IMG/VR virus record: IMGVR_UViG_2713896774_000001
Span: 1 to 29,255 of that record
DNA length: 29,255 nucleotides
Reading direction: 5' to 3' (one strand)
From: a virus
Lineage: Duplodnaviria > Heunggongvirae > Uroviricota > Caudoviricetes
Shown here: positions 7,321 to 8,324 of the stretch, piece by piece
Layout of the letters: every line of letters starts with the position of its first letter
How positions within the stretch are numbered: position 1 is the stretch's first letter
Made by a program: the position numbers and the translations under genes
Notes under the pieces: model-generated
What the model saw: the letters and a program-made list of their open reading frames with translations, nothing else
Database searches by the model: none
What the model was told of the DNA's origin: nothing

Positions 7321-7483
7321 AACACCCCAGCCAGATTTACCCGATCCGTTTACGTGGGGAGCAAGCCTTAACCTGAATGTTGCGTTGTTGTCAGCGTTAG
7401 CACAGTGCAACAGGGATAAGGCTGATATCAGGACTTTCGAGAACAACAGGGCAGGACAAACAGATGGCACGATTAAACGTTGA
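7205..7483 (+). CDS. Rz1: Rz1-like outer-membrane lipoprotein spanin (o-spanin), starting inside Rz in the +1 frame and extending past its stop
   Basis: ATG at 7205 inside Rz. Signal peptide with lipobox (MMIVLFVLCLLAQLSG-C) and a Pro-rich mature region (VPVPVVPLPANLTAETPQPDLPDP). Confidence 0.65.
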   Translation: MMIVLFVLCLLAQLSGCTTTRTVYVPVPVVPLPANLTAETPQPDLPDPFTWGASLNLNVALLSALAQCNRDKADIRTFENNRAGQTDGTIKR

Positions 7484-7649
7484 AGTTATCCCACCAGACA
7501 GCGAGGTGCTGAACGGGATTTTTGCAGAGATTGAGCGCAAATATGCGCATCAGCCGCTGACGCCAAAAGTAATTGATGAAATGCAACGCGAAGCGACGCG
7601 CCTTGTACGGCGAATGATAACCACAAAGGTTACGTTCGTCCGGGACTGA
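7464..7649 (+). CDS. Hypothetical small protein (61 aa)
   Basis: ATG ORF overlapping the Rz1 end, followed by a hairpin (GAAGCCC..GGGCTTC, 7657..7679) without a U-tract. No family recognised. Confidence 0.4.
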   Translation: MARLNVEVIPPDSEVLNGIFAEIERKYAHQPLTPKVIDEMQREATRLVRRMITTKVTFVRD

Positions 7650-7703
7650 CATTACAGAAGCCCTTCACTGAGGGGCTTCGATAATGGAGCACTGGGATTA
7701 TTC

Positions 7704-8324
7704 ATGAACAGACCACACCCACCAGCGCATTTTACGATGCCACCTGACCCGAAGCCTTACATCAGCATAATGCCCGCCATTGACGTTGGCGAGTGGCTGA
7801 ATCAGCACATCCTGAGCGATGAGGGTGACCTCTACAACCCTGACCACCAGCATTTGCTTGAAGCGGATCTGTGCTTTCTCTGGGCGTCGAACACTTTCGA
7901 GAAGAAAGGGCGGTCCGTGCTGGGGCAGGCGGAAGAAGTGGCAATGCGGGCTGGAGGCTGGCAGAAAGCGCGGATGGAGCAGCAGATGTATGAATGGTTC
8001 GGCAGGGTGCCGCAGTTCATCATCACGCTGGCCGCCGATTACTGCTCGCAATGTTCCGATCTGGAATTCTGCGCGCTGATAGAGCACGAGCTTTATCACA
8101 TCTGCCAAGCGACAGATGAATTTGGTGCGCCGAAGTTCACGCAGGAAGGGCAGCCAAAGCTGAAGCTGCGCGGCCATGACGTGGAAGAGTTTGTGGGCGT
8201 GGTTCGCCGTTACGGTGCGAGCCGGGACGTGCAGGAAATGATTGATGCGGCGAATCAGCCAGCGGAGGTTGCTCATCTCGATATTGCCAGAGCGTGCGGG
8301 ACGTGCATGCTGCGACTGGCTTAA
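7704..8324 (+). CDS. Hypothetical protein with an HEXXH zinc-metallopeptidase-like motif (IEHELYHI)
   Basis: 206-aa ORF co-oriented with the phage operons and containing HELYH. The almost fully overlapping minus-strand ORF 7698..8393 looks like antisense noise (R/L-rich, no motif). Confidence 0.55.
   Translation: MNRPHPPAHFTMPPDPKPYISIMPAIDVGEWLNQHILSDEGDLYNPDHQHLLEADLCFLWASNTFEKKGRSVLGQAEEVAMRAGGWQKARMEQQMYEWFGRVPQFIITLAADYCSQCSDLEFCALIEHELYHICQATDEFGAPKFTQEGQPKLKLRGHDVEEFVGVVRRYGASRDVQEMIDAANQPAEVAHLDIARACGTCMLRLA

Follow-up and report, generated by a model that had tools for sequence, protein, structure and literature searches.

The whole stretch of DNA analyzed, 29,255 nucleotides long and referred to here as the window, contains two open reading frames between its lysis and terminase genes. 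These frames, of 61 and 206 amino acids, had been noted at first, and both were confirmed, on the plus strand with ATG starts. The flanking genes were also as first described: upstream are a holin gene, an open reading frame in the endolysin position, and Rz, and downstream come genes for a DUF2280 protein and the large terminase subunit TerL. The upstream genes share the strand of the two frames, as does an upstream Q antiterminator gene. An Rz1-like LysC is annotated by RefSeq in near-identical Escherichia coli prophages. TerL matched PHROG 2, "terminase large subunit" (E = 1.1e-31), and is named "TerL protein" by RefSeq in near-identical prophages. The features of the locus were as follows.

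7464..7649, plus strand: orf61, 61 aa, ATG start, with a label that gives no function; 3' end of the lysis module
7650..7686, plus strand: two-tier stem-loop without a U tract, at the exact junction of the lysis module and the packaging cassette
7687..8739, plus strand: exchangeable cassette holding the HEXXH gene and DUF2280 residues 1-128, delimited by blastn against the E. coli B locus
7704..8324, plus strand: HEXXH gene, 206 aa, ATG start; PF18894 member with a predicted minimal zincin-fold core; opens the packaging cassette
7845..7853, plus strand: codons for H48-Q49-H50, a conserved HxH of the PF18894 protein
8085..8099, plus strand: codons for H128-E129-L130-Y131-H132 (HELYH), with two candidate zinc ligands and the candidate general base
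8175..8186, plus strand: codons for H158-D159-V160-E161, the candidate third zinc ligand and its neighbors at the start of the next helix
8295..8306, plus strand: codons for C198-G199-T200-C201, the conserved C-terminal CGxC of the PF18894 protein
8356..8829, plus strand: DUF2280 gene, 157 aa, predicted small terminase subunit
8826..10454, plus strand: TerL gene, 542 aa, GTG start, large terminase subunit

orf61 starts within the last part of the embedded Rz1 frame. Its product matched PHROG 12811 over the full length (E = 2.7e-36) and is a hypothetical protein in RefSeq. Both frame and length were kept in a 90%-identical copy in E. coli B, with 9 synonymous and 7 non-synonymous codon differences, a pattern that suggests modest coding constraint. 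orf61 and Rz1 occurred together in 126 of 5,426 E. coli genomes, and orf61 was found in 3 of the 80 loci carrying the HEXXH gene; the gene, small and variable, moves together with the Rz/Rz1 lysis module. The idea that this interval is a moron-like slot therefore suited orf61, which is patchy (3/80), better than the HEXXH gene, which is near-obligate with DUF2280 and for which the idea did not hold.

A hairpin without a U tract had been noted at 7657..7679, and both the stem and the missing U tract were borne out. The inner stem pairs 7657-7666 with 7670-7679, giving 10 bp around a 3-nt loop, and CATTA at 7650-7654 pairs with TAATG at 7682-7686 in the outer helix. The segment 7640-7710 folded with a dG of -28.8 kcal/mol (z = -5.3), and none of 200 shuffled sequences was as stable. 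Between the hairpin and the HEXXH start codon lie 17 nt. A counterpart occupied this position in 65 of 319 loci; these stem-loops came in 15 different sequences, and compensatory changes were seen in 7 of 15 pairs. Homology to E. coli B stops at 7686, and homology to locus L002 and Citrobacter phage Omnitron starts at 7650. The hairpin was not called in a terminator scan and had no Rfam match, two sub-threshold matches being attributable to chance. An ordinary intrinsic terminator was ruled out for the present phage, since no U tract follows the stem. In some relatives, a terminator with a U tract occupies this position.

The 206-aa protein scored 148 bits (E = 2.2e-43) with the Pfam family PF18894 (PhageMetallopep), whose cutoff is 23.7, and the match covered positions 2-134 of the 134 in the profile; it also matched PHROG 513 at positions 3-208 of 208 (E = 1.3e-96). 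PF18894, "putative phage metallopeptidase," corresponds to PHROG 513, and the label COG4900 appears in one phage record. The family name is not new, near-identical RefSeq proteins already being called putative phage metallopeptidase, and the family comprises at least 890 clusters at 50% identity. No Pfam family besides PF18894 was detected in the protein at E values up to 1, no family was returned by an NCBIfam scan, and sequence searches of the PDB with the protein, the family profile, and the DUF2280 protein gave no match. In the literature searched, no functional study of PF18894, COG4900, DUF2280, or terminase accessory proteins was found. Assignment to a well-characterized packaging protein, an outcome considered at first, was thus not obtained, PF18894 being an uncharacterized family.

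As first noted, the protein has a single HEXXH motif, IEHELYHI, at residues 126-133, and its HELYH codons lie at 8085-8099. Among 130 diverse PF18894 members with 35-55% identity, H128 and E129 were each conserved in all 130 and H132 in 129, which argues that the HEXXH is no chance motif. Conservation in the same comparison extended to H158 (129/130), D159 (120/130), and E161 (125/130); to H48 (127/130) and H50 (124/130) near the N terminus; and to C198 (128/130), G199 (125/130), and C201 (116/130) near the C terminus. H128, E129, and H132 together with H158, the presumptive third zinc ligand, look like a working zinc-hydrolase site as predicted from these data. H48 and H50 may form a second metal site with the C-terminal CxxC; the CGxC may belong either to such a site or to a latency tail of the "cysteine-switch" kind.

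An earlier structure model, built from 33 sequences at 71-98% identity, had a pLDDT of 44 and was unusable. A model from a 109-sequence alignment that included diverse members found by profile search reached a pLDDT of 88.8, with the C-terminal 20 residues poorly modeled (pLDDT about 50). It places HELYH at the C-terminal end of a helix (residues 119-131) packed on a beta-sheet in a zincin-like manner, and a further helix (160-170) directly after H158. The best structural neighbors of the model, namely minigluzincins, the SprT domain of Spartan, BepA/M48, and Wss1, are all peptidases. A Foldseek search of the PDB returned nothing significant, and the sole return from a structure search of BFVD was another PF18894 member. 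The question of whether the motif sits in a metzincin, gluzincin, or SprT/WLM-like fold was thereby answered, at the level of the model, in favor of a gluzincin/SprT-like minimal zincin, with no metzincin sign. A noncatalytic context for HELYH, the alternative initially allowed for, was contradicted by the prediction, which puts the motif in a zincin-type catalytic setting; the reading as a metallopeptidase-type HEXXH gained from both PF18894 membership and the high-confidence model. The protein is almost certainly a PF18894 member with a zincin fold.

Several differences separate the protein from the characterized metalloproteases that it resembles. Its predicted fold matches the solved minimal scaffolds of the minigluzincins (projannalysin, proabylysin, and selecase) and the M48/M56 cores (BepA, HtpX, and BlaR1), but the identity is 10-15% over about 90 of the 206 residues, and there was no M48 or M56 Pfam match at E values up to 1. 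Whereas minigluzincins have ~100 residues, the 206-aa protein has an additional N-terminal region of ~60 residues with the conserved HxH, a 25-residue beta-hairpin between the HEXXH and H158, and a Cys-containing tail, and its setting, a phage packaging operon, is entirely different from theirs and from that of the M48/M56 proteins. SprT-like and WLM Pfam matches were likewise absent at E values up to 1, and the candidate third ligand lies 26 residues past the HEXXH, not a few residues after it as in the SprT and WLM proteins. Spartan and Wss1 are DNA-dependent metalloproteases, whereas the 206-aa short form has no DNA-binding domain of its own.

A distribution survey overturned the initial view of the HEXXH gene as a lambda-type moron. 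In an HMM-based search, 164 of 168 loci had a DUF2280 gene directly after the HEXXH gene, the usual spacing being 10-40 nt. The DUF2280 start was 34-46 nt downstream in all 80 close viral loci; the same loci had the TerL type of the window in 6 cases, its portal type in 13, and orf61 in 3. In the reverse direction, for which the collection was scanned with a five-sequence DUF2280 alignment, the HEXXH gene was upstream in 154 of 158 loci found through DUF2280 alone (78/78 viral loci and 76/80 one-per-species bacterial loci), being absent from 4 of the 80 bacterial loci. At a few loci (L084, L107, and L146), the HEXXH gene was paired with other small proteins instead of DUF2280. The pairing spans phages of alpha-, beta-, and gammaproteobacteria. 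The gene order was kept in Ensifer and Sphingomonas prophages, whose TerL proteins belong to different Pfam families, with a long-form member, in Acinetobacter phage AM106, and in gp16-gp17-gp18 of Pseudomonas phage JBD44. In alphaproteobacterial prophages, the HEXXH gene was not near lysis genes and opened the structural operon. TerL, portal, and upstream genes thus vary around the pair, and what is new here is that the HEXXH gene lies outside the moron slot in a near-obligate, two-way pairing with DUF2280.

Sequence divergence followed the same pattern. Identity between HEXXH proteins correlated with identity between DUF2280 N-terminal domains (Spearman 0.80) and hardly with that between TerL proteins (0.15). 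Among pairs with HEXXH proteins at least 70% identical, TerL was <30% identical in 75%, and the DUF2280 N-domain never was. A Rosetta-stone search among 390 members revealed no fusion of the HEXXH and DUF2280 proteins.

The DUF2280 protein matched Pfam DUF2280 (PF10045) over residues 1-102 (E = 8.7e-50), and the stop of its gene overlaps the TerL start. A natural replacement was found in an E. coli B prophage, which has a TerL 96% identical to that of the window, a small subunit of the Terminase_2 family, and no HEXXH gene. By blastn, homology between the window and this locus was confined to 7131-7686 and 8740-10998, the intervening block 7687-8739 being replaced in E. coli B by an opposite-strand gene and a Terminase_2 domain (E = 6e-40). 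The exchanged segment starts right after the hairpin and ends within the small-terminase gene, and the last 39 residues of the DUF2280 protein shared 64% identity with the tail of the Terminase_2 small subunit in E. coli B. Across loci, divergence of this tail tracked that of TerL (Pearson 0.80). From these comparisons, the DUF2280 protein is predicted to be a small terminase with an N-terminal DNA-recognition domain and a C-terminal tail that docks on TerL. The linkage and swap data further support an exchangeable DNA-recognition domain in DUF2280 small terminases, and the breakpoints show precisely where lambdoid phages recombine packaging specificity. The HEXXH gene is therefore the first of a two-gene cassette inherited as a unit, whose second gene encodes the DUF2280 small terminase; the cassette is bounded by the conserved hairpin on the left and the TerL-docking tail on the right and is combinable with different large terminases, portals, and lysis modules.

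Given its nearly constant co-inheritance with a DUF2280 small terminase, the HEXXH gene is probably an aid to DNA packaging rather than an independent accessory gene. The opposing view, an accessory moron-type metallopeptidase that acts on host or defense proteins or on a phage protein unconnected with packaging and merely fills the gap between lysis and terminase genes, is quite improbable. The distribution is the opposite of patchy, being near-obligate with DUF2280 in both directions; the gene was lost when the small-terminase type changed, although TerL and the upstream region did not; and alphaproteobacterial prophages hold it away from lysis genes at the head of the structural operon. Moreover, the gene showed no sign of a separate promoter or terminator, and the initial suggestion of an anti-defense factor found no match to known defense or anti-defense models, the only hit in a PADLOC-DB scan being at chance level (E = 0.013 over 30 residues). 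Two further peptidase identities were tried and rejected: an endolysin-type peptidase, because the gene is far from lysis genes in alphaproteobacterial prophages, and a prohead protease, because a DUF2213 protein fills the slot between head-morphogenesis genes, which we take to be the expected position of a prohead protease or scaffold.

Tight adjacency by itself produces co-inheritance, and a cis-acting pac site in or near the gene, not a partnership between proteins, could underlie the linkage. Under that alternative, which we consider unlikely, the DUF2280 N-domain reads a pac or cos site located inside or beside the HEXXH gene, and the HEXXH protein itself has no part in packaging, for example as a late-expressed protease acting on a host protein. 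Pac sites are commonly located in or near terS, as in P22 and SPP1, the swap breakpoints enclose the HEXXH gene together with the DNA-recognition domain, and many linear records end with the HEXXH gene and begin with terS (Salmonella phage Oslo, Burkholderia phage Magia, and Acinetobacter phages TRS1 and Gln), although record ends are often conventional and not mapped termini. However, a packaging site could occupy any sequence and would not explain the retention of an intact open reading frame with conserved catalytic residues beside DUF2280 from Enterobacteria to Rhizobiales at 35-50% protein identity, and the gap between the two genes is merely 10-40 nt. It is also very unlikely that the protein is no peptidase and that the zincin-like scaffold serves either as a metal-dependent nuclease, as in YbeY, that helps to cut DNA when packaging is initiated or as a zinc-stabilized DNA-binding or regulatory protein of the late operon. 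The HEXXH glutamate, a general base of the peptidase type that to our knowledge is lacking in the YbeY motif, was present in 130 of 130 members; the best fold matches are peptidases; and an HNH or Vsr-like endonuclease adjoins the gene in Acinetobacter and Burkholderia phages, so it is no simple replacement for such an enzyme.

The HEXXH protein thus likely has a functional partnership with the DUF2280 small terminase or with packaging initiation. Its gene lies in the Q-dependent late operon of a lambdoid prophage, implying that the protein is made when packaging occurs. Overall, as the best explanation of the data, we lean toward a zinc hydrolase that would work alongside the DNA-recognition domain of DUF2280 when packaging begins. 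The likeliest role for such an enzyme would be zinc-dependent proteolysis, in the processing or turnover of the small terminase itself or of a protein bound at the packaging start site, though proteolysis of the small terminase or a pac-bound protein specifically is a rather doubtful refinement. Short forms such as the 206-aa protein would be recruited through the small terminase, and in long forms an N-terminal helix-turn-helix (HTH) of their own would put the enzyme directly on DNA. More broadly, PF18894 may comprise previously unrecognized terminase accessory enzymes, zincin metallohydrolases that are obligate partners of DUF2280, a generalization that we offer tentatively.

Two known arrangements offer partial parallels to this proposed partnership. 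ImmA/IrrE proteins (COG2856) are small HEXXH proteases specific for an adjacent HTH DNA-binding protein, and the proposed working logic, a protease encoded beside its HTH-protein target, would be analogous. The 206-aa protein nevertheless had no Peptidase_M78 sequence match, ImmA/IrrE was absent from the top fold matches, and the neighbor of the PF18894 gene encodes a terminase subunit and not a repressor. Terminase-associated HNH endonucleases, such as HK97 gp74, are accessory packaging enzymes encoded next to terS, and they share with the HEXXH gene the setting of a small metal-dependent enzyme inherited together with terminase genes. Their beta-beta-alpha-Me fold is unrelated to a zincin HEXXH, no HNH Pfam match was found in the 206-aa protein, and the HEXXH gene tracks the type of the small subunit and not TerL.

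In the usual account, phage DNA is packaged by a small and a large terminase subunit, with an HNH nuclease or host factors taking part in some cos phages, and we know of no packaging model with a proteolytic or hydrolytic initiation step. If the proposed partnership is correct, a zinc hydrolase required by a large small-terminase family would represent an unexpected enzymatic step in packaging initiation, and a proteolytic or other hydrolytic step would operate in hundreds of phages, among them Pseudomonas JBD44-like, Acinetobacter, Klebsiella, E. coli, and Rhizobiales prophages. If the gene proved dispensable for packaging, the tight linkage would still call for an explanation, most likely a cis-acting pac site.

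The partnership would also give a function to the catalogued family PF18894 and correct a widespread misannotation. The label "transposase" carried by PHROG 513 is an unsupported mislabel. In about a quarter of distant PF18894 clusters, the protein is extended at its N terminus by an HTH-like segment whose HTH_8 and HTH_Tnp_1 scores are borderline; a test for kinship of this extension with the HTH of DUF2280 was negative (hhalign probability, 0.7%). The label probably originated from the HTH extension of these long forms, through their weak HTH_Tnp_1 matches.

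The window comprises the late region of a lambdoid E. coli prophage, in which the genes from NinB through the portal gene all lie on the + strand:

2516-2938, +, NinB
3628-4350, +, antirepressor (ANT)
4637-4999, +, RusA
5286-5669, +, Q antiterminator
6161-6484, +, holin
6468-6944, +, ORF in the endolysin position
6928-7320, +, Rz, with the Rz1 frame embedded
7464-7649, +, orf61, a 61-aa ORF (ORF list)
7704-8324, +, HEXXH ORF, 206 aa (ORF list)
8356-8829, +, DUF2280 protein, the small terminase subunit (ORF list and Pfam)
8826-10454, +, TerL, the large terminase subunit (ORF list and PHROG)
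10454-11923, +, portal

Orf61, the HEXXH ORF, and the motif IEHELYHI (residues 126-133) were found by the ORF list and motif location exactly where the initial annotation had placed them. That annotation regarded the HEXXH gene as an accessory gene in a moron slot between lysis and terminase genes. Comparison of loci instead showed that the gene is no free insert between lysis and packaging but the first gene of a packaging cassette within the late operon. In all 80 close viral loci, the DUF2280 gene started 34 to 46 nt downstream of the HEXXH gene; among the same 80 loci, the window's TerL type was present in 6, its portal type in 13, and orf61 in 3. The order PF18894 (the Pfam family of the HEXXH protein), DUF2280, TerL, portal was kept at 45 to 55% identity, in Acinetobacter phage AM106, in one member with an N-terminal extension, and in Ensifer and Sphingomonas prophages, whose TerL proteins come from different Pfam families. 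Pseudomonas phage JBD44 also kept the order, with gp16 (labelled "transposase"), gp17 (DUF2280), and gp18 (TerL). Overall, DUF2280 lay downstream of the HEXXH gene in 164 of 168 loci, and the exceptions had other small proteins in the small-terminase position. In the reverse search, contigs found through DUF2280 alone had the HEXXH gene upstream in 78 of 78 viral cases and in 76 of 80 one-per-species bacterial cases, the latter spanning Rhizobiales, Rhodobacterales, Sphingomonadales, Caulobacterales, Pseudomonas, and Burkholderiales.

In pairwise comparisons, identity of the HEXXH protein followed that of the DUF2280 N-domain (Spearman, 0.80) and not that of TerL (0.15), whereas identity of the DUF2280 C-terminal tail tracked TerL (Pearson, 0.80). 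Recombination therefore often parts the cassette from the upstream gene and from TerL, which are equally close neighbors, and almost never splits the HEXXH gene from the DUF2280 gene. The linkage of the HEXXH gene with the putative DUF2280 recognition domain is thus near-obligate and holds in both directions.

A natural swap was present in E. coli B. The orf61 gene and the hairpin that follows it occurred in 126 E. coli genomes, B-lineage strains among them. In E. coli B C2566, the HEXXH gene was absent from the locus, and the hairpin was followed by an opposite-strand gene, by a gene for a Terminase_2 small subunit of 183 aa (Pfam E, 6e-40), and then by a TerL with 96% identity to that of the window. 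The last 39 residues of the Terminase_2 protein were 64% identical to those of the window's DUF2280 protein. At the DNA level, the two prophages were homologous only over window positions 7131-7686 and 8740-10998, and the exchanged block is therefore 7687-8739, that is, the HEXXH gene plus DUF2280 residues 1 to 128. As judged from these sequences, the exchange shows the DUF2280 protein to be a small terminase with a replaceable, putative DNA-recognition domain and a TerL-matched tail. It also shows that gain or loss of the HEXXH gene goes with this recognition domain rather than with TerL or with the head or lysis genes.

The initial annotation had left the protein family unassigned, and the databases supplied it: the HEXXH protein belongs to PF18894, "putative phage metallopeptidase", as a full-length member (E, 2.2e-43), and matches PHROG 513 (E, 1.3e-96). 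Near-identical E. coli prophage proteins in RefSeq were already named "putative metallopeptidase". The protein itself is not new, being an ordinary member of an uncharacterised but catalogued family. Clustering at 50% identity divided this family into 890 clusters, 153 of them scoring below 1e-30. Members occurred in 144 deposited phages, with Acinetobacter, Pseudomonas, Klebsiella, Vibrio, and Burkholderia among the hosts, and depositor labels varied among hypothetical, metallopeptidase, and transposase. The "transposase" label in PHROG and GenBank is unsupported. About one-quarter of the distant clusters (P0130-P0270; e.g., P0130 residues 1 to 50) carried an N-terminal extension of 50 to 120 residues with a recurrent HTH-like pattern and borderline HTH_8, HTH_Tnp_1, and MerR scores, which is the probable origin of that label. 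Among members at 34 to 55% identity, H128, E129, H132, H158, G171, C198, and G199 were invariant and H48, H50, D159, E161, and C201 nearly so; the C114-x2-C117 pair was enterobacterial and not general in the family.

A shallow alignment yielded no usable structure model (pLDDT, 44), and the final model, from a 109-sequence alignment, reached a pLDDT of 88.8 and a pTM of 0.80, with core residues 1 to 160 above 90. Its fold matches, each with about 90 aligned residues at 10 to 15% identity, were Projannalysin (7.5), Selecase (6.8), the Spartan SprT domain (6.7), Proabylysin (6.1), BepA (5.9), YbeY (5.5), Wss1 (5.1), and ArdC (4.2). The only further match from BFVD or from Foldseek and sequence searches of the PDB was another PF18894 member. 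In the predicted model, HELYH ends helix 119-131 and is followed by a conserved beta-hairpin insert and by H158-D159, which starts helix 160-170. The prediction thus shows a zincin-type fold with an invariant HEXXH+H site and fits a gluzincin/SprT-like minimal zincin. The candidate third ligand is H158 (or E161). Speculatively, a second metal site could comprise H48-x-H50 and C198-x2-C201, or the Cys tail could be a latency element. Although alike in fold to the minigluzincins and SprT/WLM proteases, the protein is a sequence member of neither, nor, according to Pfam, of M48, M56, or M78.

We consider a functional tie of the HEXXH protein to the small terminase or to packaging probable. The protein would be an active zinc hydrolase and would work with the DUF2280 small terminase when packaging starts. 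In the simplest model, which we put forward tentatively by analogy with ImmA/IrrE-type pairs of a protease and an HTH protein, its target for cleavage or turnover would be either the small terminase or a pac-bound protein; the N-terminal HTH of the long forms would fit action on DNA-bound complexes, as for SprT/Wss1-type enzymes. The same linkage might be driven by a cis-acting pac site in or near the HEXXH gene while the protein does something else, which seems rather unlikely. Of the initial proposal, the metallopeptidase-like fold stands; the moron or anti-defence reading, a host-directed or anti-defence accessory protease, does not accord with the near-obligate DUF2280 linkage of a gene that is no free insert, and we regard it as improbable. 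A non-peptidase role, as nuclease or regulator, is equally doubtful, and a simple nuclease substitute is disfavored by HNH or Vsr-like endonuclease genes that coexist with the HEXXH gene, abutting it upstream in Acinetobacter phage AM106 (L166 3553-4020) and downstream in Burkholderia phage vB_E192a (L168 4588-5139). A single packaging cassette can therefore encode two distinct small enzymes that depend on metal. The literature searched held no functional study of PF18894 and no account of its linkage to DUF2280, an absence that is not proof of absence. Although the family itself is known, such a close partnership with one family of small terminases was not expected, and it can be tested directly.

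At a few loci, small proteins other than DUF2280 followed the PF18894 gene (L084 6692-6967, L107 5411-5734, and L146 5639-6034), with a TerL-sized ORF next in each; one type was a 91- to 107-aa protein starting MARGGKRPGAGRKPG, and another was a 131-aa HTH_23-like protein. The PF18894 enzyme is therefore not strictly confined to DUF2280 partners.

The hairpin upstream of the HEXXH gene proved real and stronger than initially claimed: the 10-bp inner stem (7657-7679) is extended by an outer CATTA/TAATG helix (7650-7686), with a dG of -28.8 kcal/mol and a z of -5.3. As initially described, no U tract follows it, and the terminator scan made no call there; Rfam held no matching family. Of 319 loci, 65 had the two-tier hairpin at the corresponding place, with 17 nt between its end and the start codon. 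These copies comprised 15 sequence versions and showed compensatory changes at 7 of 15 pairs, contributed by 3 to 4 independent variants; the E. coli B copy is one more compensatory variant. Homology with phages of different lysis genes begins at 7650, and that with E. coli B ends at 7686, so the hairpin is a shared joint between modules, with orf61 on its lysis-module side. Other relatives had ordinary U-tract terminators at this position. The two-tier hairpin may define an mRNA end or stabilise the mRNA, act as a weak pause site that Q-modified polymerase reads through, or serve as a recombination patch.

On the opposite strand, a 231-aa ORF (7698-8393, -) covers the entire HEXXH gene; it was unsupported by annotation in related genomes and is most likely a shadow ORF, the + strand reading being strongly supported by Pfam. 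At the left end of the window lies an IS66-family transposase gene (42-1580, -; DDE_Tnp_IS66 E, 2.6e-104) beside small ORFs (1629-1976 and 1973-2314, -) that may represent the accessory genes typical of IS66; this element was seemingly inserted in the prophage early region, adjoining NinB. The 158-aa protein between holin and Rz (6468-6944, +) had no Pfam match at E up to 0.001, whereas a GH19 enzyme occupies this slot in a closely related prophage, and the lysis module is therefore itself mosaic.

The E. coli B gene in the portal position (L327 6587-7248) was named "anti-CBASS protein Acb1 family protein" in RefSeq, and the 648-aa Sphingomonas prophage portal (L083 8514-10460) matched both Phage_portal_3 and PF23474 (Acb1); Phage_portal_3 was the only match of the window's portal. 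The naming reflects either a portal-Acb1 fusion in some phages or an artefact. Orf61 belongs to PHROG 12811, a small family, and showed modest coding constraint. Its sole homologue among deposited phages (OM284015.1, 36688-36864; 66% identity) has Elizabethkingia (Bacteroidota) as the listed host, which is odd for an ORF otherwise found in E. coli prophages and may reflect host mis-assignment or contamination.
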